From Candidatus Omnitrophota bacterium (lineage in GTDB: Bacteria > Omnitrophota > Gorgyraeia > Gygaellales > Profunditerraquicolaceae): 64,000 nucleotides of DNA. Made by a program: the position numbers and the translations under genes. Below are positions 4,647 through 43,418 of this stretch, piece by piece (position 1 is the stretch's first letter; the number at the start of each line of letters is the position of its first letter). The stretch covers positions 241,102 through 305,101 of the forward strand of contig JALOQK010000002.1 of the NCBI GenBank assembly GCA_025453395.1. Reading direction: 5' to 3'. Below the pieces are notes generated by a model, which worked only from the letters and a program-made list of their open reading frames with translations, was not told the DNA's origin and did not search any database.

Positions 4647-5609
4647 TTATCGGGCTAATTGAAGTTTTAAATATCCGGATTTCTTGACAGCAGCAATGCC
4701 TGCCGGCAGGTCAACGATTGAGTTATTGGGGCGGTTATAAACGGTGTCCACAATTTCGTGGATGTGGCAGGCAGCGATCCGGCGGGTATCTCCTTTTAAG
4801 TTTTCAATAAGCAGGCGGATAACAAGATTTTGCATCGCCGGGTGTAACCTTACAAAGTTTGCGATCTCTACTGTTTTTCTATTGCTGACGATCTTTTTTG
4901 CTTTTTCGTAAAGATAGTCGTGGTCAGTTTCCGCGTTTACAGCGAGTGTCCTTAGCGCCGATTTTATATTCCGGTTATACTTTTGCTCTAACAATGGGAT
5001 AAGCTGTTTACGCAGGCGGTTACGCAAATATTTATCCTCAGCGTTTGTTTTATCTATCCTGAAGGGGATGCGGTTGTTTTTCAAGAAAATCCTGATATCC
5101 TTGCGCGAAGTTTCAACAAGCGGGCGGATAATGGTAAACCCATGCAATTGCCTTTTTGGCAAAATGCCCCGCAGCCCATAAAGCCCGGTCCCCCGGATAA
5201 TACGCATTAGAACAGTTTCTGCCTGATCGTCAAGGTTGTGCCCCAGGGCTATTTTGTTTATATGGTTTTTTCTGGCAGTTTCAAAAAGAAACTTAAGCCG
5301 CGCGTTACGCGCGGTTTCTTCAATATTATTCCTGGGGATATTTTTTGCCGCTATCCTCGCGGTAGTAATTTTTAAGCCATATTTTTTGGCAAGCTTCTCT
5401 GCCAGTTTTCTGTCTTTATATGAGTCTGGCCTTAAGGCATGATCTAAATGCGCCAGGTGAAGTTTCAAGCCCCAGAAAGGGGCTATCTCCACAAGCGCGC
5501 GCAAAAGCGCGCTTGAATCCGGGCCAGCCGATACGCCAACTAGGATTTTGTCATTTTTGTTAATCAGCCTGTATCTTTGGGAAGTTTTCTTTAGTTGTTC
5601 TATAACCAT
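4647..5609 (-). CDS. tilS: tRNA(Ile)-lysidine synthetase TilS
   Basis: PP-loop SAGPDSSAL (SGGxDS-type) N-terminal ATP-pyrophosphatase domain. The tilS-ftsH neighbourhood is conserved. Confidence 0.85.
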   Translation of the reverse strand: MVIEQLKKTSQRYRLINKNDKILVGVSAGPDSSALLRALVEIAPFWGLKLHLAHLDHALRPDSYKDRKLAEKLAKKYGLKITTARIAAKNIPRNNIEETARNARLKFLFETARKNHINKIALGHNLDDQAETVLMRIIRGTGLYGLRGILPKRQLHGFTIIRPLVETSRKDIRIFLKNNRIPFRIDKTNAEDKYLRNRLRKQLIPLLEQKYNRNIKSALRTLAVNAETDHDYLYEKAKKIVSNRKTVEIANFVRLHPAMQNLVIRLLIENLKGDTRRIAACHIHEIVDTVYNRPNNSIVDLPAGIAAVKKSGYLKLQLAR

Positions 5610-9018: not shown

Positions 9019-9395
9019 ATTTTAGGCAAAAAAAGTATCACTCCTACCGCTATGGCGTTTAACGAAGTAATCAAGACTACCGCGGCAGCGATGTCTTTGA
9101 TTAATTTTATCATAGGATTGTATTTTCTGGTAGCCATATCAAGCATCATTTCAATGGCGGTATTGAATATCTCTGCGACAAAAACAAGGGTTACCGCAAT
9201 AAAAATGGATACAAGTTCCATTCCCTTCAGCTTAAGCATGATCCCTAAAAGAAAAACGGCGATACCTGAAAGAAAAATAATGCGCATATTGCGGTGATAG
9301 ACAAACAGGTACGCTATGCCAGTTACTGCCAGGCGCATGCTTTCCCAGAAGCCGTGAAAACGAAAAATATGCCTTAATATTTTTACCCGCTTCAT
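9009..9395 (-). CDS. dgkA: Diacylglycerol kinase / undecaprenol kinase family (DgkA)
   Basis: Three TM helices and the conserved AEIFNTAIEMMLD motif of prokaryotic DgkA. Confidence 0.7.
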   Translation of the reverse strand: MKRVKILRHIFRFHGFWESMRLAVTGIAYLFVYHRNMRIIFLSGIAVFLLGIMLKLKGMELVSIFIAVTLVFVAEIFNTAIEMMLDMATRKYNPMIKLIKDIAAAVVLITSLNAIAVGVILFLPKICR

Positions 9396-10180
9396 TTTCT
9401 TAAATACGCCTCAAGGTATGAATCGCAATAGATATGCTTGTTCAGGATTAATTCAGTGGTAATGCTTGTGTCCATGAGCTGTTTGTCTTTTGGGTCTAAT
9501 ATTGCCGCGTCTAATCCGTAATTGATGGCCATGGTAAGGAAGGTGCGGTTTATCAGGCTTCTAAAATGTGCCCCCTGGGATACGTTGCTTAATCCGATTA
9601 TAGTTTTAGGCGAAGGCTCTGTAAGCATCTTAAACTCTTTTATAGATTCAAGTATTTCCTTCATCTGCTGTTGGGCGACATTTACCGGAAGCAGAATTGG
9701 GTCAATAAAAAGATCTTCAATGGGGAATCCCTGTTCTTGGCATGTGGATACGATAATAGCCGCTAATTCAAGGCGCTGGTCTTTATTTTGCGGTATGCCT
9801 TTTTGGCTTATGGTCAACCCGATTAATTTGGCGTTATGCTTTTTAGCCAAAGGGATAAACTTGTTAAGTTTTTCTGGATCAGAGGTAGTGGAATTAATAA
9901 TAGCCGGATTTTTCATCCGGGATAACCCGGCTTCAATTACTTCAAATCTGCTTGAATCAACAGCCAGCGGCTTATCAGTGACCTGTTGTATGGCGTCTAT
10001 AAGCCACTGGATATCTTCTTTGGGGTTTTTGGCGGTTGGGCCGCAATTTACGTCAAGCGCATCAGCGCCAGCTTGTATCTGCTCCAGGGCAATCCGTTGT
10101 ATCAGATCAATTTTTCTCTCGCGGATAGCAGCGGCTACATTTGAGTACATCCCGTTTATTAATTCTCCCACTATGAACAT
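9392..10180 (-). CDS. acsE: Methyltetrahydrofolate:corrinoid/iron-sulfur protein methyltransferase (AcsE-type pterin-binding MeTr)
   Basis: About 260-aa pterin-binding TIM barrel. The operon context (acsC and acsD) supports the call. Confidence 0.75.
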   Translation of the reverse strand: MFIVGELINGMYSNVAAAIRERKIDLIQRIALEQIQAGADALDVNCGPTAKNPKEDIQWLIDAIQQVTDKPLAVDSSRFEVIEAGLSRMKNPAIINSTTSDPEKLNKFIPLAKKHNAKLIGLTISQKGIPQNKDQRLELAAIIVSTCQEQGFPIEDLFIDPILLPVNVAQQQMKEILESIKEFKMLTEPSPKTIIGLSNVSQGAHFRSLINRTFLTMAINYGLDAAILDPKDKQLMDTSITTELILNKHIYCDSYLEAYLRK

Positions 10181-11085
10181 TAGTTTCCTCCATACATTGC
10201 GTCAATGTAGCTTTTGACTTTTGCGATAGATTCCGGATGGCGCATTACAAGGATATTCGCCCCTGCCTGAAGCAATGAGGTGGCGGTAATTACTTCCCAG
10301 GCAACGCCTTGATCTTTTATTTTGGCCTCTTTAGTTTTCCATGTCTCTTGCCCTACAAAACAAATAAACGGGCTTGCCACTGTTTTGTCTCCGGATAGGC
10401 CTGCAAGCCTGGCGCGCTCCATAATTGAATAGGCATACTCTAAGCCGTATCCTAAAGATCCGGTAGTAGGATTGATAACTATTCTGTCCAAACTTAACCC
10501 CATATCCGAAATAAGAATATTGAGCTGTTTGGCTATATTTATGTCAATGGGAGATTCCGCGATAATATTGTGGCCATCGGCTAATGCCGCAGCGGTTAAA
10601 GTTTTGTAGTTATCTTGAGTAACGCAACCCAAAAGGCAGCGCTTGGATTTTGTTTTTTCCGAACACAGGGGCAGCATTTGGTTATCCACAGCGTCGTCTC
10701 CGCAGCCCAGGATAATAAGCGGCAGATTAGTTTCTTTTATTATATCACAAGCAAGCTTCGCCTCTTGCTCTATTTTTATATTTCCCTGGTCCGGATGCGC
10801 GGCATAAAGCCTAAGGCAAAGAAGCTGTGCCTTATATTCTTTGGCGCATTTTTTCGCCCAGGCAATTGGATCTTTCAGGCAGTTTCCGTATATGCTTAAT
10901 AGCTCTTCAGGCCACTCTCTGGGAAACACATCCCAGATTTCATATGCCACAACCGGTTTATGCGGCAGAGAAGCCTCCTTAAATAAGAATGGCAGGGTTT
11001 TTTCTCCTCCCACGCTAATGGTATCCCCTATTCTTACTATCGCAACTTCGCCGGGCCATTTTTCAATCATTGCCTCTTGGGTCAT
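10180..11085 (-). CDS. acsD: Corrinoid iron-sulfur protein small subunit (AcsD / CdhD, CODH/ACS delta)
   Basis: About 300-aa CdhD-family TIM-barrel protein. It lies between acsE and cooC. Confidence 0.75.
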   Translation of the reverse strand: MTQEAMIEKWPGEVAIVRIGDTISVGGEKTLPFLFKEASLPHKPVVAYEIWDVFPREWPEELLSIYGNCLKDPIAWAKKCAKEYKAQLLCLRLYAAHPDQGNIKIEQEAKLACDIIKETNLPLIILGCGDDAVDNQMLPLCSEKTKSKRCLLGCVTQDNYKTLTAAALADGHNIIAESPIDINIAKQLNILISDMGLSLDRIVINPTTGSLGYGLEYAYSIMERARLAGLSGDKTVASPFICFVGQETWKTKEAKIKDQGVAWEVITATSLLQAGANILVMRHPESIAKVKSYIDAMYGGN

Positions 11086-11102
11086 AAAGATCTCCTGTTT
11101 AG

Positions 11103-11840
11103 TTAAATTATTTTGTCAGTTATTTGTTTTAAGGCTGTCAATGCTTGCGAATTGTTTTCAAGCGAGAAAACGCAACTAGCGTTAATGCCTATTTTTATTA
11201 ATTCGGCATCTTGCGGGATGTACCCTGCGATTTGCATGCCGGTAGTATTTTTAAGTATTATATTTTCATCAGCGCAGTTTAGAAGCAGCAATATCTTTTT
11301 TGTTTTTACTTTTAATTCTTTTACCAGTTCATTTACTCTCGCGGCAGCTTTCATGCTGACCGCATTTGGGTTTGCCAGAATAATCAAACTATCAGCATGG
11401 CGCGTGGTGCGCCGGGAAAAATGTTCCAGGCCTGCTTCGTTATCCATAATGACATAGTCATATTCAGCAACTAATTTGCCCATCATATTGCGCAAGAGAT
11501 TGTTCACGTAGCAGTAGCATCCCGGGCCTTCGGGCCTGCCCATAGTTAAAAGATCAAAACCCTCTTCTTCAGAAATAGCCGTGTGGATTTGGTATTCAAT
11601 GAAATTCTCTTTGCTGGTTCCGGCGGGGATCTTTTCCGGATGAGAAGATATCTCTTCTAATAGCGAGCCAATAGTTTTCCCCTCTTCAATCCCAAGCGCC
11701 TGTCCCAAATTGCTATTAGGATCAGCATCTATCGCTAAGATAGACCCGGATTTTCTTTCTTTTAATATCCTGACCAAAAGCGCAGCGATGGTGGTTTTTC
11801 CTGTGCCGCCTTTTCCTGATAACGCGATTATGTAACCCAT
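11103..11840 (-). CDS. cooC: CooC/AcsF-type Ni-insertion ATPase (MinD/ParA family)
   Basis: Deviant Walker A GKGGTGKTT and the CooC-characteristic CxC metal motif (EGPGCYCYVN). Confidence 0.8.
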   Translation of the reverse strand: MGYIIALSGKGGTGKTTIAALLVRILKERKSGSILAIDADPNSNLGQALGIEEGKTIGSLLEEISSHPEKIPAGTSKENFIEYQIHTAISEEEGFDLLTMGRPEGPGCYCYVNNLLRNMMGKLVAEYDYVIMDNEAGLEHFSRRTTRHADSLIILANPNAVSMKAAARVNELVKELKVKTKKILLLLNCADENIILKNTTGMQIAGYIPQDAELIKIGINASCVFSLENNSQALTALKQITDKII

Positions 11841-12131
11841 AAAATTAAAAATTTAAAATGAAAAATGTAAAATCAAAAGATAAAACCAAGAATATAATAT
11901 AGTGTTAAGAAATAAAAGCTTAGAATTCAAACAAGTGTGCGTTAAATAAATATTAAAAATCTATGATAAATCGTCCTGATTCTTTATTTTCTTGTTACTT
12001 CGCTATTTTTTATGATCTTTTTAATTTTTTGTATCTAGATTTTTAAATTTTAAATCTTTTCTTATCACTATCTTTAGCCGTTTCTTATACTTCTTTGTAT
12101 CTGTAGCTTTTTAATTTTGAATTGTTATTTT
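11841..12131. repeat. AT-rich intergenic repeat element, copy A. It has imperfect terminal inverted repeats and an internal direct repeat.
   Basis: The left arm aaaaatttaaaatgaaaaatgtaaaatcaaaag is approximately the reverse complement of the right arm gaattgttatttttcattttgaatttctcattttgaattttt. The internal direct repeat ttgtatctagatttttaaatttt (12027..12051) recurs as ttgtatctgtagctttttaatttt (12093..12118). Confidence 0.5.
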
Positions 12132-13979
12132 TCATTTTGAATTTCTCATTTTGAATTTTTCTAAGTCCGTATGCGGAAAGAATAATGCCGCCATATATTC
12201 TTCCATATATCCGGGTTGGTTAGACAGATCTATATATGTTGTTTTATTGGCTATTTCTAGAGATTTTGCTTTTGCCGGGATTGAAAAAATGATCTCCCTG
12301 GCTCCTCTAATGGAGCTGTTTCCGACAAACAGAAATTTGCCTTTTTCTAAATCTGGAAGCAGTCCTATTGCTATTGAGTCTTGAATGTCCAAATAAGTGC
12401 CAAAGCCTCCGGCAATAAAGAATTTGTGCACATCTTTAAAGGAAAATCCCATGTGTTTTATTAATGTTTCTGCCGCGGAATAAATCGCAGCTTTAGCGCG
12501 CTTAATATTCTCAATATCTGATTCGGTAATAATTATTTCTTCAGCTGCGTTGGATTGGCCCTGATGGCAGACAATAAAAGCTCTTCCCAGATCAGTATCT
12601 TTTATTTTTGAGGGGTTTTTAATCTGGATATTGCCTGCTTTGTCAATAATCCCTTTTTCCAGCATTTGGGCGATAAGCGAGATGTATCCAGACCCGCAAA
12701 TGCCTAAAGCCGGCACATCCCCGCCTATTATCTGAAAGCTTGTATCAAGGCTTCTGTTATCTATGGATACTTTTTGGATCGCCCCCCGAGAAGCGCGCAT
12801 GCCGCAGGATACTCCTGAGCCTTCAAAAGCCGGTCCGGCGCTGGCGGCACAAGATATCAGGAATTCTTTATTGCCAAGGACTATTTCTCCGTTTGTGCCT
12901 ATATCAATCAAGAGCGAAAGGTGTTCCTGTTGGTCTAATGAGCAAGCCAGTATTCCGCTTGTGATATCCCCTCCCACATAACTTGCTACTGCTGGTATGG
13001 GCATAAGTACGCCGCGCGGATTTATAATGATACCGGCTTCAACCGCATGTATAGACGGGAAAGAATTAGCTACGGGGGTATACGGGTCACGGCGGATAAA
13101 AGAAGGGTCGGTTTTTAAGAGGATATGCGTCATAGTGGTATTGCCGGCGCAGATTATAAAGTATACATTGTTTAAGTCTACCTGGTGCTGTTGGATCAAT
13201 TCCCGGATAATATCATTTATTTGCCCGGTAACAATACTGTGCAGTTTCTCTAACCCTTCAGAGTTCTTGGCAAAGATAATGCGGGTAATCACGTCACTGC
13301 CGAAACTGGCTTGCTTATTGTAACAGGCAGAAGCCCCCAATGACTTTCGGTTGTTTAGATCTACAAGCTCGCCGGTTATGGTAGTGGTTCCGATATCAAA
13401 ACAGAAACCGTAATTTTTGCTTGTTGTGTCACCCGGCTCTATGTGAATAACTTCAAATATTGTTTCCCTGTAAGCAAGGGTAATTGTAATTTGCCAGTTT
13501 GAATCTCTCAGAATTTCTGCGATTTGCCTTAAAGTAGTTATGCCTATAGTTATGCTTCCAAGGTTATATTTGTCTATTTCCCGCGTTATCCTTTCCCAAT
13601 CGCTTAAAGGGTCATTTGGCTTGGGCGCAGGCAATTTCAAAAATATTTTCTTAACCAGCGGTAATTGTTCAAAGCCGGTATTGCCCAAGGATATTTTAGA
13701 CAGTTCTATTTCCTGGGCATCGGTTTTTTCAAAGATCAATCTTGATTGTTCCGGTATTTCTACCTGCATATCTTCTTTTACTATGGTTAAGCAGGCAAGT
13801 TTAGATACGGAAATTCCTTTATCCTTGATGATCACTTTGCATTGCCCGCAGGTGCCTTCGCCTGCGCAGGCGGATTTAATATAGTTTGCGCAGGATATTG
13901 CCGCGGAAAGCACAGTTGTCCCCTTGGGGACTTCTACTGTTTTTCCTTCAGGGTAAAAAGTTACTTTACATTTATCCAT
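12132..13979 (-). CDS. Reductive activator of corrinoid iron-sulfur protein (RACo): [2Fe-2S] ferredoxin plus ASKHA ATPase
   Basis: N-terminal plant-type ferredoxin Cys pattern (CAGEGTCGQC...C) followed by an actin/HSP70-fold ATPase region. 615 aa, typical of RACo. Confidence 0.8.
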   Translation of the reverse strand: MDKCKVTFYPEGKTVEVPKGTTVLSAAISCANYIKSACAGEGTCGQCKVIIKDKGISVSKLACLTIVKEDMQVEIPEQSRLIFEKTDAQEIELSKISLGNTGFEQLPLVKKIFLKLPAPKPNDPLSDWERITREIDKYNLGSITIGITTLRQIAEILRDSNWQITITLAYRETIFEVIHIEPGDTTSKNYGFCFDIGTTTITGELVDLNNRKSLGASACYNKQASFGSDVITRIIFAKNSEGLEKLHSIVTGQINDIIRELIQQHQVDLNNVYFIICAGNTTMTHILLKTDPSFIRRDPYTPVANSFPSIHAVEAGIIINPRGVLMPIPAVASYVGGDITSGILACSLDQQEHLSLLIDIGTNGEIVLGNKEFLISCAASAGPAFEGSGVSCGMRASRGAIQKVSIDNRSLDTSFQIIGGDVPALGICGSGYISLIAQMLEKGIIDKAGNIQIKNPSKIKDTDLGRAFIVCHQGQSNAAEEIIITESDIENIKRAKAAIYSAAETLIKHMGFSFKDVHKFFIAGGFGTYLDIQDSIAIGLLPDLEKGKFLFVGNSSIRGAREIIFSIPAKAKSLEIANKTTYIDLSNQPGYMEEYMAALFFPHTDLEKFKMRNSK

Positions 13980-13982
13980 GTA

Positions 13983-15326
13983 TTATCCAGCAGAGTAGTT
14001 CTTTAAGAAAGCTGGCAGACCCGATGCTTCTTTTGGGCCCACGGTTATTTTCCAACCGGATTTTTCTTCCAGCTCTCCGCTTAAAACTGCGACATAACCG
14101 GGTATGATCAGGTTTTTATGCGATACAGCTTTATCGGCATTAAGCTTAATAAGGGCGTTAGCTATTTTCTCCGGGGTAAATTTCTCCGCCGCCCAGGCAG
14201 TTAAGACCGACATGCCTTCCGTATCCATGCTTATTATGTGCGAGGGGATTTTGCTGGCTTCTACCTCTCCCAGGACCGTGTAATAACTAAGCGAGAAATT
14301 TGTGGTGATCATGATCGGAGATTTGACAGTGGCATTTCCTATGGTGTAGATTTTTGGTTCAATCTGAAGAGGCTTTTGCGGATCGGTATAAATATTTTGC
14401 CTTAAGGTTAAAAGCGACAGGGCCTCCCACGCAAGCGCATGTTTCAATAAAACAATACCGGAATATTTACAGATGTAGGTTGCCGCTTCCATGATTTCAT
14501 CAAGGGGATCGGCCTTGTTGATAGTTACTATTGCGGGATATCCTAATAAGCGGTTTGATTTTTTAAGCGCCTGGCGGCGGATTTGGGTTAAGTCCCAGAG
14601 TTTTTCCCGGGTATTCTTATCTCCAGAATCAATAATCAGATCGTTAAGCCCTGCCTTGGCCAGGCTTTCAGTTTTAGCTGCCGCCTCTTCTATTGTTCCG
14701 GCCTTAACTACCATAGCAAGCTTGTTTTCTTTGGCTAAGGCAGCTGCTTCTTGGCTAATATTTTCATCCGGATAAATAAGCGGCTTTTGATCTTTGCTTA
14801 TTTTTATAGCCTGTTCCAAAGAAGCTATGTCGCTTACCATTAAAACTATGGCCAATTTTGTATTTTTTAAAGCCGTCTGCACTAATTTGATGAAATTTTG
14901 CAGGCAGCCGGTTTGCTTTAGGGCGATTAAATTAACTTCTAATTTTTGCCCTACGCGCTCAAATACAAAACTATTTATTTTATTGATCTGATGCAATATC
15001 TCTGTTTCTTTTAAAGTGTCTTCTAATATTATGCCGATTCCGCAAGGATTGTGGAACTTTTCTTCATGCCGGAACAAGACGCTTTCATTGCCAATATCAA
15101 GTTTATTTTCGCCTGTCCCGATGGATACTAATTTTATTGGAGGCTGGGAAGATTCTTCAAGTATTTTCTTTGATTCATTGGATAAAAACGGGCACTTATC
15201 GATGCTTATCCCCTTTTTTGCTAATTGCATGGCAAAGGCAAGGCAGGTTGCGATGCCGCATTGCCGGCAATTTGTTTTAGGCAATAACTTATAGATGTCT
15301 AATCCCGAAAGCGCCATAATTAACAA
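13983..15326 (-). CDS. acsC: Corrinoid iron-sulfur protein large subunit (AcsC / CdhE, CODH/ACS gamma)
   Basis: N-terminal [4Fe-4S] motif CRQCGIATC...C, a TIM barrel, and a C-terminal B12-binding Rossmann domain. 447 aa. Confidence 0.8.
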   Translation of the reverse strand: MLIMALSGLDIYKLLPKTNCRQCGIATCLAFAMQLAKKGISIDKCPFLSNESKKILEESSQPPIKLVSIGTGENKLDIGNESVLFRHEEKFHNPCGIGIILEDTLKETEILHQINKINSFVFERVGQKLEVNLIALKQTGCLQNFIKLVQTALKNTKLAIVLMVSDIASLEQAIKISKDQKPLIYPDENISQEAAALAKENKLAMVVKAGTIEEAAAKTESLAKAGLNDLIIDSGDKNTREKLWDLTQIRRQALKKSNRLLGYPAIVTINKADPLDEIMEAATYICKYSGIVLLKHALAWEALSLLTLRQNIYTDPQKPLQIEPKIYTIGNATVKSPIMITTNFSLSYYTVLGEVEASKIPSHIISMDTEGMSVLTAWAAEKFTPEKIANALIKLNADKAVSHKNLIIPGYVAVLSGELEEKSGWKITVGPKEASGLPAFLKNYSAG

Positions 15327-23794: not shown

Positions 23795-23872
23795 ATTTTA
23801 ACATTATTATTACCTTAAGTCAAAATAATAAAATATATAGACAAAATCCAGGAACACGCTAAAATAGTCTGC

Positions 23873-26800
23873 ATGAAAAAGCCAAGCTTTCAACTTTCTA
23901 AAACCGGCGAATTTGTCATCACAAACTATAATCACGCCAAGCCTTTTGCCAATTTCTTTCCCGCGATAGCGGGTTGTTTTGGCATTCCCATTTGGGTTTT
24001 CTACGTTAATCGCGGGCAGTGCATCGCCAGCCTAGGCACTAAAGATAAGGACCACGCCATAATGGAGTTCTCGCCTGCCAATAAAGCCTGGCAGCATACC
24101 TCTTTGCAGGGGTTTCGCACTTTTTTGAAGATAAGCCGCGGTAAAAGCAATCTTTTTTATGAGCCGTTCCACAATGGATTCTCTAATTTGCCATATACAA
24201 TAGAGAACAAAATGAAGGTATCCTCCTATGGTTTAAAAATAGAAGAAACAAACTATACTTTAGGCGTTCAAACCGAAGTAGAATATTTTACCCTGCCCAA
24301 CGACAGCTTTGGCGCTTTAGTGCGCGCTGTTACCATACGCAATATCTCAAAAAGAAATCAGCATATTCAGATGTTAGACGGTGCTTCCCAGATAATACCG
24401 TTTGGAATGAATAACTGGCTGATGAAAGAAATGAGCCGCACTATTGAAGCCTGGATGGTGGTTGATAATTTAAAGCAAAAGGCCGCATTCTTGCGGCTTC
24501 TTGTTGACCCCTCTGACCGCCCGGAAGTAACCCACATAAAAGAAGGTAATTTTTATTTTGGCGCAACTGATGAAAATTCCCAGATGCTTCTTTTAGACCC
24601 GATAGTTGACCCGGATGTTATTTTCGCAGAGGTAACCGACTTCTCTTGCCCGGCATCTTTTTTGCGCGGCAAAGATTTCCTCCCGGATCTTTCAAGACAG
24701 GCTGTAAAAAATAAGATCCCCTGCGGTTTTATCCACAGCGCATTTAATCTTAAAACCAATGAAGATAAGATATTTTATTCCATGCTGGGGTATGCTTTTA
24801 ACGTGGATGCCTTAAACAAGGCATTGAAGCGTATGCTCAGTCCGGGATATTTAAGCCGTAAGCGCGATGAAAATCAAGCTATTATTAGCGGCATTACTCA
24901 GATGATTGAAACAAAAAGTTCTTCCTTGGCTTTTGACTTTTATGCCAAGCAGACTTTTCTGGATAATATTATGCGCGGTGGGCTGCCTCTTACCTTAGAA
25001 ACCGGGGATAAAAAGCATATTTTTTACCTGTATTCGAGAAAACACGGAGATCTGGAGCGCGATTATAATCGTTTCCAAATTCAGCCGACCTATTTCTCCC
25101 AGGGCAATGGTAACTACCGCGATATCAACCAAAACCGACGTCTTGACTGCTGGTTTAACCCGCTGGTAAAGGAAAACAATATCGTTTCTTTCTTGAATCT
25201 GATTCAAACTGACGGGTTTAACCCTTTAGTGGTTAAGGGCGTAAGTTTTCTTATCCAAGATCAGGATCTGCTTCGATCACGATTAAAATCTTTTGTGCGG
25301 GGAGAAGATGAAAAAACCCTGATTGATTTCTTTGCCAAGCCGTTTACCCCTGGAGACCTGGCTCAGCTTATACTGGAGAAGGATATCAAGCTTTTTTCTT
25401 CTTTAGAAAATTTTATCGGCCAGATACTATCTTTGTCGGTTGAGTATCAAGAGGCTGAACATGGCGAAGGTTTCTGGATTGACCACTGGGCGTATAATCT
25501 GGACCTTCTGGAAAATTATTTCTCCATGTATCCCGAAGACAAATTAAATTTATGTTTTGAAAAGAAAATCTTTACTTTTTTTGATAATAGCGAGGTGGTT
25601 AAGCCGCGCGCTGAGAAATACCTGCTTTATCACGGACAGCCAAGGCAATTACACTGCGTGGGAGTTGATTCCCATAAAAAAGAATTGATCAAAAAGCGCC
25701 ATAGCCTTTCCCACGCAATGCACTCTGGATATGGAACAGCAGATATTTATACCACCAGCCTCTTTGCTAAGCTTTTGTGCTTGTTCGTGAATAAAATGTC
25801 CTCTCTTGACCCGTTTGGGGCAGGCATTGAAATGGAAGCAAATAAACCCGGCTGGTATGATGCCTTAAACGGGCTTCCGGCTTTATTTGGCTCATCATCC
25901 TGCGAGACCTTTGAATTAAAGCGCCTGATCCTCTTTTTAAAGGATATCGTGGATCTGGGGCCTAACATGAGAATACAGATTTCGGAAGAAGTAATTGATT
26001 TTATCTTTAGCCTTGACCCTATTATAAAAGAAAGCCTGCAGAGCGATTCCAATGAAAAAGACTATGTCTATTGGGATAAGGCAACCAGCCTTAAAGAGGC
26101 TTACCGTAAAAAGACCATTCTTGGATTTAGCGGAAATGATATTCAGATCTTAGCAAAAGATGTATTGCCTGTTTTGGATAATGCCTTAAAGAAAATTGAC
26201 TCGGCTATTAACAAGGCCTATGATCCTAAAGCAAAGATGTACTACGCGTATTTTATGCACGAGGTAGTTGAATTTTCCCAGTTGGAGCATGGGTTTATCA
26301 AGCCGCTTAAGTTCAGGCAAATAAGATTGCCCTTTTTCTTGGAATCTCAAGTGCACGCTTTGCGATTAGCTTCTGATGAAAAGCAGGCTCGCCAATTGCA
26401 TCAGGCAGTTATGAAAAGCGCTCTTTACGATAATAAACTTAAAATGTATAAGGTAAACGCCCCGTTATCTGCTATGCCTGAAGAAATCGGCAGATGCCGC
26501 GTGTTTACTCCCGGCTGGCTTGAAAATGAATCTATATGGCTGCATATGGAGTATAAGTATTTGCTTGAACTCTTAAAGCAGGGGCTTTATGATGAATTTT
26601 ACGCTGATTTTAAGAATGTGCTGATCCCCTTTCTTGACCCTTTTGTCTATGGAAGAAGTATATTAGAAAATTCTTCTTTTATCGTGGGAAGCGCCTATTT
26701 TGACAAAAAATTACATGGAGCTGGTTTTGTGGCGCGGCTATCCGGCTCAACGGCAGAATTTTTGCAGATCTGGCTTTTAATCAATACCGGCAAACAGCCA

Positions 26801-27097
26801 TTCTTTATGGATAACAAAGGCCAGCTTGCTTTACGTTTTCAGCCCGCGCTTGAGGCTTGGATGTTTGATAAAAAAACCGGCAGTTATTCTTTTAAATTTT
26901 TGAATAAAACTATGGTTACTTATCACAACCCAAAAAGAAAGAATACCTTTGGGGCAAATATGGCGCAGGTTAAGAAAATCACCTTCCTTGATAAAAATGC
27001 CAAACTTATAGAAATAGAATCATCTTTTATCTGTCCGCCTTACGCCGAACAAATCAGGTCCTGCCAAATTGGGAAAATAGACATCTATTTAGGATAA
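23873..27097 (+). CDS. Large cytoplasmic GH94-like glycoside phosphorylase superfamily protein (1074 aa)
   Basis: This is the only plus-strand gene. The N-terminus GEFVITNYNHAKPFANFF parallels cellobiose-phosphorylase EYVITxPxTPxPWxNYL. GNGNYRDINQN parallels GMGFRDSNQD, and GWYDALNG parallels the catalytic-region WNDCLN. No signal peptide. Confidence 0.5.
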   Translation: MKKPSFQLSKTGEFVITNYNHAKPFANFFPAIAGCFGIPIWVFYVNRGQCIASLGTKDKDHAIMEFSPANKAWQHTSLQGFRTFLKISRGKSNLFYEPFHNGFSNLPYTIENKMKVSSYGLKIEETNYTLGVQTEVEYFTLPNDSFGALVRAVTIRNISKRNQHIQMLDGASQIIPFGMNNWLMKEMSRTIEAWMVVDNLKQKAAFLRLLVDPSDRPEVTHIKEGNFYFGATDENSQMLLLDPIVDPDVIFAEVTDFSCPASFLRGKDFLPDLSRQAVKNKIPCGFIHSAFNLKTNEDKIFYSMLGYAFNVDALNKALKRMLSPGYLSRKRDENQAIISGITQMIETKSSSLAFDFYAKQTFLDNIMRGGLPLTLETGDKKHIFYLYSRKHGDLERDYNRFQIQPTYFSQGNGNYRDINQNRRLDCWFNPLVKENNIVSFLNLIQTDGFNPLVVKGVSFLIQDQDLLRSRLKSFVRGEDEKTLIDFFAKPFTPGDLAQLILEKDIKLFSSLENFIGQILSLSVEYQEAEHGEGFWIDHWAYNLDLLENYFSMYPEDKLNLCFEKKIFTFFDNSEVVKPRAEKYLLYHGQPRQLHCVGVDSHKKELIKKRHSLSHAMHSGYGTADIYTTSLFAKLLCLFVNKMSSLDPFGAGIEMEANKPGWYDALNGLPALFGSSSCETFELKRLILFLKDIVDLGPNMRIQISEEVIDFIFSLDPIIKESLQSDSNEKDYVYWDKATSLKEAYRKKTILGFSGNDIQILAKDVLPVLDNALKKIDSAINKAYDPKAKMYYAYFMHEVVEFSQLEHGFIKPLKFRQIRLPFFLESQVHALRLASDEKQARQLHQAVMKSALYDNKLKMYKVNAPLSAMPEEIGRCRVFTPGWLENESIWLHMEYKYLLELLKQGLYDEFYADFKNVLIPFLDPFVYGRSILENSSFIVGSAYFDKKLHGAGFVARLSGSTAEFLQIWLLINTGKQPFFMDNKGQLALRFQPALEAWMFDKKTGSYSFKFLNKTMVTYHNPKRKNTFGANMAQVKKITFLDKNAKLIEIESSFICPPYAEQIRSCQIGKIDIYLG

Positions 27098-27142
27098 TAA
27101 CCAATTTACCAAATCCCAAGTTGCAAACAATATCCAATAATC

Positions 27143-27238
27143 AATAACCAAATGCCAAACGGTTTGATTATTGGAAAATTGGTAATTGGTTATTATTTGG
27201 TGATTGGAATTTGATTATTGGTTATTTTAATGATTGCT
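27143..27238. terminator. Hairpin and tandem-repeat region between convergent genes (candidate bidirectional terminator)
   Basis: Stem ccaataatcaataacc/ggtttgattattgg (27143..27194), followed by repeats of ttgattattgg, ttggtaattgg and ttggtgattgg. It lies between the stops of the GH94-like gene and the outer-membrane protein gene. Confidence 0.4.
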
Positions 27239-27239
27239 A

Positions 27240-30053
27240 TTAAAATTTTCTGCGGTAATAGAGGCGTACTATATGGCGGGTATCTAAGACAGAATACCCT
27301 CCTGAGAATGGATCGTAAGATTTTATAGCTGACGGGGTTATTCCTCCATCGCCATATTGCATAATAAGCTCATCGTCAATTGAAGCAGCATATCTTGCTT
27401 CGGCAAAGAAATTATGGTGGCCTAAGTAAACCTTATTTTCTCCATCAAGCATTCTGTTCACGTCGTTCCAGCGTGAATAGGTGTAACGCAAAAAGAAGTT
27501 AAGCTTCTTAGTCGGCAGGTACGCTAATTCCATGCCTATGTGGTTGATGTTGTTATCAATCCCGCCGGCGCTTTTAAATTCATTGCGCGTGTAATCAAGG
27601 TAGATTTGCATTTGATCGCTTGGTTTAAGCTTTAAGCCTGTTTTCCAAATATCATAAAAAGGATAAGGCGGTAACGGAAATAACCCCTGGCTGTAAAGCG
27701 AGTTTAATTCCTCGCGGTATTTATTTCCGTATTCATAATAAGTGGTGCCTAAATTAGCATTACTAAGCAGGCTTCTTGGAAAATTATCATAAGCTAAAGT
27801 ATAGTCGTTTGTATGTTCCCAGATACCGGATAAAGAAACCCCATCAAAAAACTCGTATTCTAAACCCAGGGATCCGGTTTTTAATGAAGGGTCCTTGCCA
27901 TCAGTTATAGAAGAGTTGCTAATGTATTCTCCGGTGTTAGGATCAGTTATAAATGGGTCTATGCCGTTTTTAGTCTTAGGAAGATACTGATAAATCCCCA
28001 GCAGTTTTGTAGTCAGGCGCTGGTTTATCTTATAGGTAAATTCATCACGGGCAACAGTCTCCACTTGCTTGCCGTTAGTTTTATGCACATTTCTGACATC
28101 TAACAAATTATTCGCGCTATTATCAAAAAATGTATTTTCTACGCGCGCGCCTACCGCGTCCCTTCCGATATCAACACCATCGCCTATTTTATAAGGTTCG
28201 ATGTCTTCCCAGGTATTTGTGGGCTTGTATAGACCGGTATAATAATAATCGAATGGTTTCTGAAAATGCAGATGGCGCGACCAAAAGGCGTCATTGCGCG
28301 TTTGATGATAATTAGAAAGTTTAGTGTCAAACCCTTCATCCATATGCGTAAAGAATAATCTGTATCTGCAAAACGCCTCATCGCCTTCCTGCGGCTTCAT
28401 GCCGTAATAGCCGTATTCCTGGTTCATGATGCTTCTTCCGGAGAAATTACCGATCAATGATAAATGGTAGGCATTGCCCCGGTAGCTTGATTTATAAGTT
28501 TCATTGCTTAGATCCTGGCGCGTTTTAGAGGCAGCCGCCTGCATATATGTTTTAACTCCGTCTGTAATCTCATATTCGGTATCAACCGAATATACATAAT
28601 TTACCATATCTTCCCGTTGGCCGGAATCAAAGCCCATGCGGTAAGTCAAGGTGGAGCCGATATTGAAATTATCCGCCATATGATATTTCAGGCGCGTGGC
28701 ATTGATAATATTGTTGATATAGCTGTAATCTTCCCAAAGTGTTTTAGGAGCAGCAATCGTGGAATCAATAGACAGGTTATCGATTGTGCTTAATGAAAGG
28801 CTGGCGCCGCGCAAATTAGTAAGCCTTGTCCCGTCTGAATCACGCACCAAATAGGCCAGAGAATCGTCCATGCCGCCTTTAGTAAAATCAGAAACCCCAT
28901 CGTTATATTCACCTTGCCTCCAGGCGTCAATCCATGGGCTTTCTTGCCACCAGATATGGTTGTTGGAAAGCTTCAGCGGATCATCTGATGTATAAGCCTG
29001 GTCCTGATAAGCTATGGGGAACACGCGTAATTTTATCCCTTCTTGCTTGTAATCCGCCCAGAATTCGCGCAGCGGCTGAAAGTAAGCGTTAATCTTCTTT
29101 GAAGGAATGATAAAGGTGTCGTGTAATCCGGTGCCAACATCAGCAAAAGCGCCAAGTACCGTGGCTTGGCTTGTGCTGCCGCTATGGACTTTTAATTCCG
29201 GCAGGCTTAATGAATTTCCATTTTGTAAGGTGTAGATAGTTTGCGCCAGAGTGTAATTGGTGTTTCCTAGATATAATAATTGCATCTGGGCGGGATCACC
29301 CCAGCCGCTTGTCACGGTGAACTTATCGCTTTTACCGATATAACTCCACGGGTCAGCGGTAATATTGCCATGGAAGTTCAAGCCTTCTTTATTTTGAGTA
29401 TCTAAATTAACCCTTAAGCGGTCATATACGCGCGTGTCAAAGGTATTAGCCTTGCGGTTATACCCGGCAGTAGAAAGTATTCTCCAGTTTTTTTCATCCA
29501 AATCAGCGTTGGCCCTGTTGACTATAAAATCATCAGTATCCGCCCCCAGAGAAATCTGGGCTTCTCCCTCAACAGCAATATTGCCTACCTTAAGTTCTTC
29601 TTTCTGGGTTTCGGTATCTAATGCGGTTTTATCTTTCGCGGCGTAATAAGGGCTTGCGTAAGCAAGCTGTGTTTTTGCCTGATCCGGCTGTTCTTTGGGG
29701 ATCGTTTTGTCTAAAGAATCTAGCAAGCGGGCCATTTCCTTTTCTCTTTTTACGGAATCTTCAAATTCTAACGCTTTATCCGAATGTAGCTTATTGGTTT
29801 TGGCTTGCGCGGCAGAACCTTGCGCGGGGGCATTGATCTTAGCGATATAATAATTGGCGGTTTGATTATCTGGTTCTAGTATAAGGACTTTTGAGAATTC
29901 TCTAAGTGATGCAGTAAAATCTCCCTGATTATAGTATTTTACCCCATTCTGGCAGAGATACTCTGCGGCCATACTTTGAGAATAGCCTAAATTTGCTATT
30001 CCCTGCAAGATAAAAGCTATTATGAATATTTTAGCAAAGTTTTTCTTCATCAA
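27240..30053 (-). CDS. Large secreted outer-membrane beta-barrel-like protein (937 aa) with an N-terminal TPR motif
   Basis: Signal peptide MMKKNFAKIFIIAFILQGIANLGYS. A TPR-like segment (GDFTASLREFSKVLILEPDNQTANYYIAK). The rest is rich in Y/N/T/G with amphipathic beta-strand patterns and ends in YRRKF (C-terminal Phe, the OM-insertion signal). Confidence 0.6.
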   Translation of the reverse strand: MMKKNFAKIFIIAFILQGIANLGYSQSMAAEYLCQNGVKYYNQGDFTASLREFSKVLILEPDNQTANYYIAKINAPAQGSAAQAKTNKLHSDKALEFEDSVKREKEMARLLDSLDKTIPKEQPDQAKTQLAYASPYYAAKDKTALDTETQKEELKVGNIAVEGEAQISLGADTDDFIVNRANADLDEKNWRILSTAGYNRKANTFDTRVYDRLRVNLDTQNKEGLNFHGNITADPWSYIGKSDKFTVTSGWGDPAQMQLLYLGNTNYTLAQTIYTLQNGNSLSLPELKVHSGSTSQATVLGAFADVGTGLHDTFIIPSKKINAYFQPLREFWADYKQEGIKLRVFPIAYQDQAYTSDDPLKLSNNHIWWQESPWIDAWRQGEYNDGVSDFTKGGMDDSLAYLVRDSDGTRLTNLRGASLSLSTIDNLSIDSTIAAPKTLWEDYSYINNIINATRLKYHMADNFNIGSTLTYRMGFDSGQREDMVNYVYSVDTEYEITDGVKTYMQAAASKTRQDLSNETYKSSYRGNAYHLSLIGNFSGRSIMNQEYGYYGMKPQEGDEAFCRYRLFFTHMDEGFDTKLSNYHQTRNDAFWSRHLHFQKPFDYYYTGLYKPTNTWEDIEPYKIGDGVDIGRDAVGARVENTFFDNSANNLLDVRNVHKTNGKQVETVARDEFTYKINQRLTTKLLGIYQYLPKTKNGIDPFITDPNTGEYISNSSITDGKDPSLKTGSLGLEYEFFDGVSLSGIWEHTNDYTLAYDNFPRSLLSNANLGTTYYEYGNKYREELNSLYSQGLFPLPPYPFYDIWKTGLKLKPSDQMQIYLDYTRNEFKSAGGIDNNINHIGMELAYLPTKKLNFFLRYTYSRWNDVNRMLDGENKVYLGHHNFFAEARYAASIDDELIMQYGDGGITPSAIKSYDPFSGGYSVLDTRHIVRLYYRRKF

Positions 30054-30061
30054 TTGACCAA

Positions 30062-30097
30062 TAAAAAAACCGCATTGGCTTTTTGGCCAATCCGGTT
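30062..30097 (-). terminator. Rho-independent terminator downstream of hypothetical gene 30188..30532
   Basis: A 10-bp stem ccgcattggc/gccaatccgg with one mismatch and a 6-nt loop. On the minus strand it is followed by TTTTTTT (plus-strand aaaaaaa at 30063..30069). Confidence 0.65.
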
Positions 30098-30187
30098 AAG
30101 TTTATATTGCGCATGTATCTGTTTCATTAAGTCCTAATTATATAAAATCCCTCCTTTTTGTCAAGAAAAAATAATTAAATTCTTCAA

Positions 30188-30532
30188 TTATTCATCTTTA
30201 TATTGCATCAGGTTGCTGGGTATAGAGCTAAAAGTAATCCTAAGCGAATGCATGAAACAGATCAAATAAGTTTTGCCATTATTTATGGCGTAGATGCTGC
30301 CTTTAAGGCGGCAGAAAAACCTTTCTTGCTGTTTTTGATCGTTATGCTCTTTTAACACATATAGGTATGGCTGGGGCTTTTCTATTTTCTCCGGGCGCAC
30401 TTCGCGCACCGTGCAAATAAAATGCCTGCGGATAACGCTTCTAATGCCTTCTTTGTCCACGATTTCCGAAGCGCAGATTATGCGTCTGTTTTTTTCTTCG
30501 CAAGTCAGGTTTTTAAATACTAGATCCCTCAT
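30188..30532 (-). CDS. Hypothetical 114-aa protein, an orphan gene with its own terminator
   Basis: ORF with no recognisable domain; it contains 5 Cys. It is flanked by long non-coding gaps, unlike the tightly packed neighbours. Confidence 0.4.
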   Translation of the reverse strand: MRDLVFKNLTCEEKNRRIICASEIVDKEGIRSVIRRHFICTVREVRPEKIEKPQPYLYVLKEHNDQKQQERFFCRLKGSIYAINNGKTYLICFMHSLRITFSSIPSNLMQYKDE

Positions 30533-41440: not shown

Positions 41441-41608
41441 TTAATACTAGGTTAATTAAAAATTTAAAGTGTAAAATTAAAAATTACAGCGTAAAATCTA
41501 AAACTTTGAAAACAAAAAGCTTAAAGCGCAAAATGATAAGCAAAATTAGAAATTTTGAATTTTACTCTATACTTTTAGGCTTTTCGCTTTACGTTTTTAG
41601 TTTTTAAA
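41441..41608. repeat. AT-rich intergenic repeat element, copy C
   Basis: Shares gtaaaat-containing motifs (aaagtgtaaaattaaaaattacagcgtaaaatctaaaac) and a right-arm motif cgctttacgtttttagtttttaaaat, similar to cgcttttagtttttaatttttag in copy B. Confidence 0.4.
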
Positions 41609-42039
41609 ATAGCAGGTAAAATAAGCCGGGTTCTGTATAATTGTGGCCATTTCTCTAGTCCTTAAAGCCTTACAGCAAAGGATCAAGCAGCCTACCCGCC
41701 CGGCTTCCTCAAAATCAGAGGCATCGACTGGGACTTCTCCGTCCTATCTTTCGATAGGAACGCCGGGCCTATTTGGCCTTGCTCCACGTAGAGATTGCTC
41801 GTTTCACCCCCCGCCGCTTTGCTTCGCTTTGCGAAGCAAAGCGGCGCCAATACTGGAAAAACCAGCTTAAGCGGCGGGATCCTAAAATTAAGGATATCCT
41901 ACTCAAAATTAATTGAGTGATGGGCGTTGCCCACTACGTTTACCCTGCGGAGCCCGGACTTTCCTCCCCCCCGCTGTTTTGCTTTTGCAAAAGCAAAAGC
42001 AAAACAAGACGCGGGGGCAGCCACATTTTACCTGCTATC
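41609..42039 (-). ncRNA. rnpB: RNase P RNA, bacterial type A
   Basis: Minus-strand sequence carries the universally conserved GGAGGAAAGUCCGGGCUCC (P4 5' half) and ACAGAACCCGGCUUA (P4 3' half). P1 is formed by 5' AGCAGGUAAAAU and 3' AUUUUACCUGCU. There are extended GC-rich hairpins (the UUUUGCUUUUGCAAAAGCAAAA and GCCGCUUUGCUUCGCAAAGCGAAGCAAAGCGGCGG inserts). The ends are approximate, within about 5 nt. Confidence 0.85.
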
Positions 42040-42454: not shown

Positions 42455-43171
42455 CTATTCTTCTATGTAAAGCATGCGGTTACAATTCTCGCAGGTAATA
42501 ATATGGTCGTACATCTTGATAAGATTAATCACCTGGGCAGGCATAAAAAGATTGCATCCCTGGCAGGAATTATTTTTTACCGCAACTATGCCAAGGCCGT
42601 TTCTATTGCTTAGTATTCTTTCGTACTCTGCGAAGATCTTTTTATCTACTTCAGGGATGACTTGGCTTCTTTGCGCCTCTAATTGGCTGATTTTCTCGTC
42701 TATTAACTTGATGCTGTCAGTTATTTTCTTTTTTTCTTCATTAACAGCCTTTTCTTCTTGAGCAAGCATCTGTTTTTCTTTATCCATATCCTGCTTGGCT
42801 TTATCTATCTGATCCATAGAAGAAAGGATTTTGTCTTCTATCAAAGACATATCCGCTTTTGCGTCTTGTATCTGTCCAAGCATAGTATTGTACTCTTTAT
42901 TGGTTTTTAAGCTGTAAAGCTGGCCCTGCAACTTTTTAACAGCCTCTTCTCTTGAACCTAGTTCAAGCTCAAAATCCTTTTTCGCTTTCTGTAGGTCAAG
43001 GTAAGCTTTTTCTAATTGCGCAAGAACTTGTTTCTTAAGGTCAAAGGCTTCATCAATTGCTTTAAGCTTGAGCGGTTGATTTTGTTTTTCGTTATTCAAA
43101 AGGTATATCTGCCGGTCTATATCCTGTAATCTTAAGAGAACCGCTATTTGCGCTTTTAAATCAGCTGGCAT
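42455..43171 (-). CDS. COG1579-type coiled-coil protein with a C-terminal C4 zinc ribbon
   Basis: Long coiled coil, then CQGCNLFMP...CENCNRMLY. I trimmed the ORF to ATG 43171 (MPADLK...) because the first 75 residues of ORF-track ORF 42455..43396 lie across two tRNA genes. Confidence 0.75.
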   Translation of the reverse strand: MPADLKAQIAVLLRLQDIDRQIYLLNNEKQNQPLKLKAIDEAFDLKKQVLAQLEKAYLDLQKAKKDFELELGSREEAVKKLQGQLYSLKTNKEYNTMLGQIQDAKADMSLIEDKILSSMDQIDKAKQDMDKEKQMLAQEEKAVNEEKKKITDSIKLIDEKISQLEAQRSQVIPEVDKKIFAEYERILSNRNGLGIVAVKNNSCQGCNLFMPAQVINLIKMYDHIITCENCNRMLYIEE

Positions 43172-43196
43172 AACCGCATCCTTTTCTTTATATATA

Positions 43197-43270
43197 TGGG
43201 CGCAATAGGACTTGAACCTATGACCTCTACAATGTGAATGTAGCGCTCTAACCAACTGAGCTATGCGCCC
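43197..43270 (-). tRNA. tRNA-Val (anticodon CAC)
   Basis: GGGCGCATAGCTCAGTTGGTTAGAGCGCTACATTCACATTGTAGAGGTCATAGGTTCAAGTCCTATTGCGCCCA folds as a cloverleaf with anticodon loop TTCACAT. CCA is not encoded. Confidence 0.9.
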
Positions 43271-43272
43271 GA

Positions 43273-43345
43273 TGGGCCCACAGGGATTTGAACCCCGGGC
43301 CAAGTGATTATGAGTCACCTGCTCTAACCACTGAGCTATGGGCCC
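43273..43345 (-). tRNA. tRNA with CAT anticodon, tRNA-Ile2 (lysidine)-like rather than elongator Met
   Basis: GGGCCCATAGCTCAGTGGTTAGAGCAGGTGACTCATAATCACTTGGCCCGGGGTTCAAATCCCTGTGGGCCCA is nearly identical in D-arm and anticodon arm (GGyGA-CUCAUAA-UCrCU) to the E. coli ileX tRNA. It lies 2 nt from tRNA-Val. Confidence 0.8.
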
Positions 43346-43418
43346 TAAAACAGGCAAAAAAGTATAATTACAGAGAATAATAATTATATCATACAAAGGA
43401 AAAGCTTCAAAGGGATTT

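Follow-up and report, generated by a model that had tools for sequence, protein, structure and literature searches.

A GH161 phosphorylase gene convergent with the gene of a predicted large outer-membrane beta-barrel in Omnitrophota, and a possible link to the use of beta-1,3-glucan

Phosphorylases of family GH161 cleave beta-1,3-gluco-oligosaccharides with phosphate in a reversible reaction (PMC6484121; bioRxiv 10.1101/2025.04.05.647330). The known bacterial genes, mostly from Gram-positive hosts, adjoin those encoding beta-glucosidases, GH94 enzymes as well as transporters of the ATP-binding cassette (ABC) type (PMC6484121). Beta-1,3-glucan loci of a different make-up, which combine SusC/SusD with GH158, GH16 and GH3 enzymes, have been described in Bacteroidota (PMC7157763), GH158 being a family of beta-1,3-glucanases (PMC7157763, PMC13195107). 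Here we describe a GH161 gene in a 64-kb stretch of core chromosome from a Candidatus Omnitrophota bacterium (the whole stretch is hereafter called the window), where it converges with the gene of a predicted outer-membrane protein (OMP). Omnitrophota are uncultivated and mostly ultra-small bacteria, whose nutrition is debated between predation or parasitism and free-living fermentation or acetogenesis. Public records identical to both proteins belong to a metagenome-assembled genome of Candidatus Omnitrophica (locus tags MUF05_02635 and MUF05_02640), and no published description of these Omnitrophota genes was found in the literature searched. The two genes and their spacer are:

23873..27097, plus strand: open reading frame (ORF) of the GH161 phosphorylase, ATG start, 1074 aa
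27098..27239, no strand: spacer between the convergent genes, a long imperfect palindrome with a CCAA-rich and a TTGG-rich half
27240..30053, minus strand: ORF of the OMP, 937 aa, TTG start followed immediately by ATG (936 aa in the NCBI record)

An earlier reading of the window, made from its letters alone (the sequence-only reading), had picked out this pair as a lone plus-strand gene of a GH94-like phosphorylase with its stop 143 nt from that of the OMP gene. The convergence is as it described; the spacer measures 142 nt.

The phosphorylase matches solved GH161 proteins from end to end. In phmmer comparisons, its aa 10-1071 aligned with residues 4-1035 of PDB entry 9qqk_A ("GH161 phosphorylase", 1046 aa; E 1.7e-237), and an end-to-end match of E 1.1e-236 was obtained with 9h8v_A (1039 aa). 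A Pfam scan at E values up to 0.1 returned no family, the GH94 models PF17167 and PF06165 included, and the laminaribiose phosphorylase 6ggy_A gave a marginal local match only (E 0.0097). Membership of GH94 was therefore rejected, as was that of GH149, since the NCBIfam model NF058639 scored 146.3 bits, far below its cut-off of 1150, and covered the N-terminal region only. On these comparisons the enzyme is assigned to GH161, within clan GH-Q; the sequence-only reading had rightly seen a glycoside phosphorylase and had listed GH161 with GH94 and GH149 as the families to look for, and its GH94-like label is imprecise.

Across 33 Omnitrophota homologues, which share 56-60% identity with the window protein, residues R389, R416, W661, D663, E884, S935 and S957 do not vary. 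Matched by motifs and a nearly constant offset of +44, without a direct alignment, they correspond to R345, R373, W623, D625, E840, S891 and S913 of THA_1941 from Thermosipho africanus. The latter bind glucose-1-phosphate, and R345, R373, D625 and E840 are essential, as judged by mutation (bioRxiv 10.1101/2025.04.05.647330). The motif blocks that carry the catalytic and binding residues are identical in the alignment of the window enzyme to 9qqk. The catalytic loop reads W-Y-D in the window enzyme, W-F-D in most Omnitrophota and W-N-D in THA_1941. No signal peptide was found in the protein, which places it in the cytoplasm. Thus, it shares full-length homology, similar length, the W-x-D loop, the binding residues and the cytoplasmic location with the GH161 enzymes of Paenibacillus polymyxa (PapP) and T. 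africanus. Omnitrophota homologues comprise 1057-1149 aa, so that a length of 1074 aa is the norm of the family; the excess of about 250 aa over cellobiose phosphorylases, correctly measured in the sequence-only reading, is not unusual and loses its value as a hint of an acquired or specialised module. From family membership, the predicted substrate is beta-1,3-glucan or laminari-oligosaccharides. In contrast to the known GH161 genes, that of the window is lone, monocistronic and near-leaderless, and lies beside an outer-membrane barrel among the housekeeping genes of a diderm candidate phylum. It is therefore a GH161 member in an unusual setting, and the barrel family next to it is uncharacterised.

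The product of the second gene was divided into the following parts:

29973..30053, minus strand: start region and signal peptide, aa 1-27 (MKKNFAKIFIIAFILQGIANLGYSQS, then the cut, MAAE), read from the sequence, cleavage site inferred
29829..29966, minus strand: helical hairpin module resembling a tetratricopeptide repeat (TPR), aa 30-75, presumably periplasmic
29604..29828, minus strand: probably disordered, low-confidence linker, aa 76-150 (pLDDT 30-49), poorly conserved in the alignment
27243..29603, minus strand: beta-barrel domain, aa 151-937, with about 30 long strands

The true start is probably the ATG at 30050. Residues 5-25, within the signal peptide, form the sole hydrophobic segment of the OMP, and the homologues have equivalent signal peptides that end 4-6 residues ahead of a YLCE motif. 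An AlphaFold2 model built from 45 homologues (pLDDT 77.4, pTM 0.71) places helices at aa 2-42, 46-59 and 64-74, the first of which continues from the signal peptide, and strands between aa 154 and 936, with two-residue turns alternating with longer loops. The C-terminus reads ...RLYYRRKF, and F937 is invariant in all 45 homologues. Residues 151-937 contain 7.5% Y, 7.4% N, 8.0% D, 7.4% T, 1.8% W and 0.1% C, as compared with 2.7% Y and 0.4% W in a set of 17 cytoplasmic proteins of the window. The signal peptide, the modelled fold, the C-terminal aromatic beta-signal and the Cys-poor, Tyr/Trp-rich make-up together predict an outer-membrane beta-barrel, as the sequence-only reading had proposed from the C-terminal Phe, the Y/N/G-rich strands and the N-terminal TPR of a secreted protein. 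This TPR is a single repeat (Pfam TPR_2, E 0.0014, below the family cut-off; PDB consensus TPR, E 1.3e-5), and no TPR array was detected in the OMP. The module carries the conserved motif YLCExGxxFYxxGxYxxALxEFxKVL and is also present in an unrelated 965-aa protein.

Models of plugs, TonB-dependent receptors, LptD, ushers and multi-TPR proteins did not match the OMP, which belongs to no Pfam or NCBIfam family; the PEP_TPR_lipo model scored 15 bits against a cut-off of 312. Sequence identity to TonB-dependent receptors, PapC/FimD ushers, MtrB and LptD is 6-13%, and the protein was rejected as a TonB-dependent receptor or SusC, an LptD or an usher, because plug, OstA/LptD and usher domains are missing. 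More than 185 full-length homologues (41-56% identity to the OMP) were retrieved, nearly all of them labelled Omnitrophota, and the family is present in 231 species genomes. A profile search of 1.84 billion representative proteins yielded, at a clustering level of 50% identity, about 57 full-length clusters with identities as low as 24%, and not one named relative. By these searches the family is seen almost only in Omnitrophota and has no place in any named family. The window protein has all the features of this Omnitrophota TPR-barrel family: full-length homology that takes in the module of signal peptide and TPR, conserved motifs in the loops, and YYRRKF at the end. Variants of the family include P0306 (L091, 10001-18166; loci are cited by L numbers), an autotransporter-like protein of 2721 aa with right-handed beta-helix/NosD, CarboxypepD_reg and SdrD_B regions ahead of the C-terminal barrel, and P0294, in which a Pom-porin domain is fused ahead of the barrel.

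Each gene of the pair has promoter-like sequences of its own:

30137..30164, minus strand: OMP promoter TTGACA-16-TATAAT, a perfect sigma-70 consensus
30064..30091, minus strand: hairpin and T-run in the OMP leader (ATTGGCCAAAAAGCCAAT GCGGTTTTTTT), terminator- or attenuator-like
23838..23865, plus strand: promoter-like site TAGACA-16-TAAAAT ahead of the GH161 gene

The OMP promoter matches the consensus at 12/12 positions in 30 of 68 related loci and at 11/12 in a further 17; among 300 random 250-nt windows, two had a 12/12 match and none had 11/12. This perfection makes it probable that the barrel protein is abundant and very highly expressed. In 17 of the 23 other examined loci with a perfect OMP promoter, the distance from the -10 hexamer to the ATG is 9-11 nt, which implies a leaderless or nearly leaderless mRNA and suggests, as far as sequence can tell, leaderless translation of a major outer-membrane protein in these loci. 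The window and L005 differ in having an OMP leader of 83-114 nt in which a hairpin, related in sequence between the two, is followed by seven Ts; in L005 the leader is 114 nt long (promoter at about 399). This hairpin, which has no Rfam match to a known RNA, looks like a terminator, an attenuator or a small RNA. The -10 hexamer of the GH161 site ends 7 nt ahead of the ATG, again implying a leaderless mRNA or a very short leader, and sites of the form T(T/G/A)GACA-16-TA(A/G/C)AAT (10-11 of 12 positions) precede the GH161 start, mostly by 7-28 nt, in 43 of 45 related loci. In the spacer, the arms of inverted repeats reach 35 nt, and as RNA it folds into a long hairpin on either strand, with -39.1 kcal/mol on the plus strand (z -3.0) and -44.0 kcal/mol on the minus strand (z -6.6); it is plausibly a shared bidirectional terminator. 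Judging by the conserved promoters and the hairpin spacer, the two genes are separate transcription units.

Gene order was surveyed in 80 loci from species-level genomes, retrieved by means of the barrel; 76 of them were informative. The recurrent order is lepA-lepB-pgsA-plsY-x-OMP, followed by GH161 in opposite orientation and by gatC-gatA-gatB-ctp, where x encodes a small protein. Barrel and GH161 genes are adjacent, convergent and less than 400 nt apart in 53 of the 76 loci, with proteins diverged to 41-60% identity. Where both flanks of the slot are visible (n=43), it holds OMP and GH161 in 39 loci, GH161 with a gene cassette described below in 2 and GH161 alone in 2. The G+C content of the two genes (0.412 and 0.423) is close to the window mean (0.416), and their G+C content at third codon positions (GC3) and codon-usage distance fall inside the range of the other window genes. 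Given this native composition and the same position and orientation in 53 species-level genomes, the pair is considered ancient and vertically inherited, and it appears to have occupied the slot between plsY-x and gatCAB since before the divergence of the sampled Omnitrophota species.

Outside the clade of the window, both families occur in clusters with other genes related to beta-glucan. Barrel orthologues with 41-44% identity (L015, L068, L070, L071 and L073) close a same-strand cluster that encodes a sugar-binding protein (SBP), GH2_C-like enzymes and small exported proteins. A ROK gene lies 4-8 nt downstream of the barrel gene in six loci (L003, L070-L073 and L075), followed farther on by a LacI regulator; the ROK protein of L070 has a winged helix. 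The barrel gene lacks a strong promoter of its own in the five of these six loci that were scored. Divergent family members (about 30% identity) are also found in glucan-gene clusters: (i) SBP, two permeases, GH158-like enzyme, p209, p221, GH-A enzyme, barrel, PilZ protein, GH161, x and ROK (L086 and L095), (ii) GH-A, PilZ, GH116, barrel and GH161, co-directional and with 5 nt between barrel and GH161 (L084), (iii) PilZ, GH116, barrel, cassette and GH161 (L088 and L097), (iv) SBP, permeases, GH158-like enzyme, p218 and barrel (L085), (v) a protein resembling a carbohydrate-binding module, SBP and barrel (L089 and L090) and (vi) barrel with a GH2_C/GH72-like enzyme (L093). The closest solved relative of the GH2_C-like enzymes belongs to GH158 (E 6.7e-14, a partial match). 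These enzymes bear signal peptides or anchors, whereas GH116 and GH161 do not.

Several further proteins recur in these clusters. Cytoplasmic PilZ proteins of 590-650 aa, which have no other recognisable domain, are encoded directly beside GH161 or the barrel (L084, 1333-3114; L086, 10593-12539; L088, 1370-3238; also L095, L133, L142, L151 and L156); comparison with the PDB gave no informative relative and no recognisable glycosyltransferase domain. Their position hints at control of the glucan genes by cyclic di-GMP (c-di-GMP). Exported proteins of about 210 aa that share the motif NHY..SG.MGDYGD and have no Pfam match recur between the GH158-like enzymes and the barrel (L086, 5240-6634; L085, 7192-7848; L070, 5700-6854) and are candidates for glycan binding. 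The cassette mentioned above consists of genes for four or five exported proteins (about 455, 200-290, 265 and 950 aa) and stands beside GH161, sometimes replacing the barrel (L018, 12962-18804; L022, 2773-8880; L052, 5470-12012; L088, 7978-14727; also L097, L099, L102, L107, L128 and L129). Its 950-aa protein has T2SS-T3SS_pil_N, SdrD_B and CarboxypepD_reg domains and shares with the barrel protein only the N-terminus of signal peptide and TPR (34% identity over 70 aa). We had taken the insertions between the paired genes in L018 and L052 for unrelated cargo; this view was dropped, since the same cassette (c455...c949) recurs beside GH161 in other arrangements. The RHS and leucine-rich repeat (LRR) genes inserted in L043 and L021 are unrelated to the pair. 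In L084 (3095-7567), GH116 reads in frame into the barrel gene, giving a predicted protein of 1490 aa (P0287). A true fusion is disfavoured, because an ATG and a typical signal peptide are present at the junction (about 5118-5200), which makes two genes with a lost or miscalled stop the more likely explanation.

The clusters found outside the clade of the window describe a coherent inward route for beta-1,3-glucan. We lean, with limited confidence, towards the view that one such route has the barrel at its outer end and GH161 at its inner end. Secreted GH158-like endo-beta-1,3-glucanases would release oligosaccharides, which would pass the outer membrane through the barrel and be taken into the cytoplasm by an SBP-dependent ABC importer presumably encoded elsewhere in the genome. 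GH161 would then remove glucose from the non-reducing end with phosphate, yielding alpha-glucose-1-phosphate for glycolysis, and GH116 or a beta-glucosidase together with the ROK kinase, as encoded in other genomes, may help GH161 to finish the degradation. The analysis itself shows what the genes are, the class of fold, a conserved arrangement, separate promoters and the gene contexts across the family; from these we infer which substrate is used, that the barrel works as a channel and that the two proteins are coupled in the window genome. Should this hold, the barrel would play the part of the outer-membrane component in a polysaccharide utilisation locus. The beta-1,3-glucan loci of Bacteroidota follow the same logic and likewise combine a secreted GH158-related glucanase, small exported putative binding proteins, a barrel, intracellular exo-acting enzymes and regulators. 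The Omnitrophota clusters differ in that (i) the barrel has about 30 strands, no match to the plug or TonB_dep_Rec models of Pfam (PF07715 and PF00593) and no SusD partner, (ii) an SBP-dependent ABC system serves the inner membrane and (iii) phosphorolysis by GH161 is the end-step; in the window only barrel and GH161 are present.

Several observations weigh against this route. The convergent orientation excludes co-transcription of the two genes, and no inner-membrane sugar transporter and no further carbohydrate-active enzyme was found elsewhere in the 64-kb window. The oligosaccharide uptake and phosphorolysis unit suggested by the sequence-only reading draws real but indirect support from the same-strand glucan clusters of other Omnitrophota, and within the window it lacks both a shared transcript and a transporter. 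The window GH161 clade, whose specificity is a prediction, has about 45% identity to the solved members (estimated from the printed alignment). In a reciprocal scan of metagenomes seeded with divergent GH161, 80 loci were recovered: 12 have the arrangement of the window, about 10 the same slot with the cassette or nothing in place of the barrel, 2-4 a barrel within a glucan cluster and 7 a PilZ or GH158-like gene without a barrel, and about 45 of the 80 show none of the partners tested.

The same kind of objection underlies the strongest rival, according to which the genes are neighbours by inherited gene order only, the barrel being a general abundant OMP (a porin, a structural or an envelope-biogenesis protein) unrelated to GH161, and GH161 serving, for example, the turnover of internal or imported beta-glucan. 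We regard this as rather unlikely, although much in the clade of the window fits it. The 11-gene block from lepA to ctp is collinear throughout, and inherited synteny might account for the adjacency there on its own. Conservation is 100% at junctions within operons, 53/75 at OMP/GH161 and 31/43 at GH161/gatC, which likens the junctions around GH161 to ordinary ones between operons. Each gene also occurs apart from the other: 19 loci have the barrel with no GH161 next to it, among them that of Ca. Velamenicoccus archaeovorus, where the surrounding genes for a response regulator, HD-GYP, MshEN and TolC-like proteins were uninformative, and GH161 occupies the slot without a barrel in L099, L102, L112, L138 and L157. 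Conservation of the perfect promoter in dozens of species suggests that the protein is abundant and made constitutively. A general envelope role also fits the phospholipid and lipid A genes near the barrel, i.e. plsY and pgsA in the window, skp-lpxD-lpxC/fabZ-lpxA-lpxI in the group of L051, and LpxL in L003 and L094. Gene order inherited within one clade does not predict, however, that the link between barrel and GH161 should recur in rearranged, co-directional form and with other beta-glucan genes, or that orthologues in another clade should lie inside an SBP/GH158-like/ROK/LacI cluster and lack a promoter of their own. The evidence from outside the clade of the window tells more about a functional link than does adjacency inside it.

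A second rival would turn the route outward, with the barrel as the export porin of a synthase-dependent exopolysaccharide system of the BcsC, PgaA or PelB type and with GH161 and the glucanases serving to make, prime or trim a beta-glucan instead of taking it up. Like the OMP, BcsC, PgaA, PelB and AlgK/AlgE combine an N-terminal periplasmic TPR part with a C-terminal barrel and have glycan-related neighbours, with PilZ nearby in some genomes. Known export porins have about 10-20 TPRs and barrels of 16-18 strands. The shared architecture, the recurrence beside barrel and GH161 of PilZ proteins, a class of c-di-GMP receptor, the presence in L028 of a PilZ gene and a BBP2_2 porin after the OMP, and the reversibility of the GH161 reaction all agree with export. 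The OMP was nevertheless rejected as a porin of this type, since it has one sub-threshold TPR and a predicted barrel of about 30 strands, and no glycosyltransferase or synthase gene is adjacent to it in the window or in L084-L088. In addition, the PilZ proteins contain no glycosyltransferase domain that could be recognised, and the clusters hold SBP-dependent ABC importers and the cytoplasmic degradative enzymes GH116 and GH161, which points inward. On account of the single TPR, the strand number, the missing synthase and the importers nearby, we consider an export function very improbable.

An origin of the pair by recent insertion of an acquired or mobile carbohydrate module into a housekeeping region is scarcely credible: a lone opposite-strand gene in a strongly strand-biased region and the variable content of the slot between x and gatC (OMP, the 4-5 gene cassette, RHS or LRR genes, depending on the species) would suit it, but the composition is native, the arrangement is shared by many diverged species, and no integrase, transposase or repeat boundaries flank the pair. 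The hint of acquisition drawn from orientation in the sequence-only reading has thus lost its force, as the same convergent arrangement is present in 53 of the 76 informative loci, and the comparison of G+C content and codon usage with the flanks, when run, showed both genes to be native.

Returning to the proposed glucan route, it may be part of something larger. We raise, as a tentative possibility, an undescribed system for the utilisation of beta-1,3-glucan that is specific to Omnitrophota, in which the barrel of about 30 strands replaces a SusC-type transporter and glucan is possibly a central carbon source. Its parts would be the GH158-like enzymes, p209/p221, the surface cassette of four or five genes, the PilZ proteins, the ABC importer, GH116, GH161 and the ROK/LacI regulators. 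What suggests that beta-1,3-glucan, either imported or kept in store, may have this role in these ultra-small and supposedly host-dependent bacteria is the constancy of GH161 in its slot. The conserved pairing of GH161 and barrel, together with the glucan gene sets of some lineages, suggests beta-1,3-glucans such as laminarin as a regular substrate of Omnitrophota. The analysis also brings to light a family of very large outer-membrane barrels that is abundant and uncharacterised, and documents for Omnitrophota perfect-consensus promoters 9-11 nt ahead of start codons. Should the adjacency reflect inherited order only, its yield would be a correction of annotation, from "cellobiose phosphorylase" or "hypothetical protein" to GH161.

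As regards the surroundings of the pair, 91% of the window is covered by minus-strand ORFs of at least 100 aa, and the minus strand also carries its tRNAs and the RNase P RNA gene:

41606-42037, minus strand: RNase P RNA

Outside these minus-strand ORFs, plus-strand ORFs of 60 aa or more are limited to the GH161 gene and a 75-aa ORF within the RNase P RNA gene, which bears out the description of GH161 as a lone plus-strand gene. Cumulative GC skew falls steadily along the window, which is consistent with a leading minus strand; in that case GH161 would be the sole head-on gene. On the GH161 side, the neighbours are gatC, gatA, gatB and genes encoding a Ctp protease, a polysaccharide deacetylase and TsaD; on the OMP side, they are x, plsY, pgsA, lepB, lepA, cmk and aromatic amino-acid genes. 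Protein x (30188-30532, minus strand; 114 aa) is a cytoplasmic, Cys-containing protein with no Pfam match. In about 48 loci its gene is conserved between plsY and the barrel gene, and it is kept in place where the barrel is missing (L112, L138 and L157).

Farther off in the window are Wood-Ljungdahl genes, rpoD, dnaG, a type II secretion/type IV pilus cluster and LpxL. The Wood-Ljungdahl-type genes (9392-15326, minus strand) encode two CdhD-like proteins, a pterin-binding methyltransferase-like protein, RACo and a CooC-like ATPase, and point to acetogenic or CO-dehydrogenase metabolism in this organism. The secretion/pilus cluster (about 49.5-60 kb), in which several adjoining ORFs have no Pfam match, includes a secretin gene (49541-51610, minus strand) whose product carries Secretin and Secretin_N domains and a C-terminal TonB_C domain. 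Finally, the TTG-started form of a 313-aa Zn_ribbon_9/CT398-like ORF (42455-43396, minus strand) overlaps two tRNA genes (43197-43270 and 43273-43345, minus strand), so its true start must lie farther downstream.

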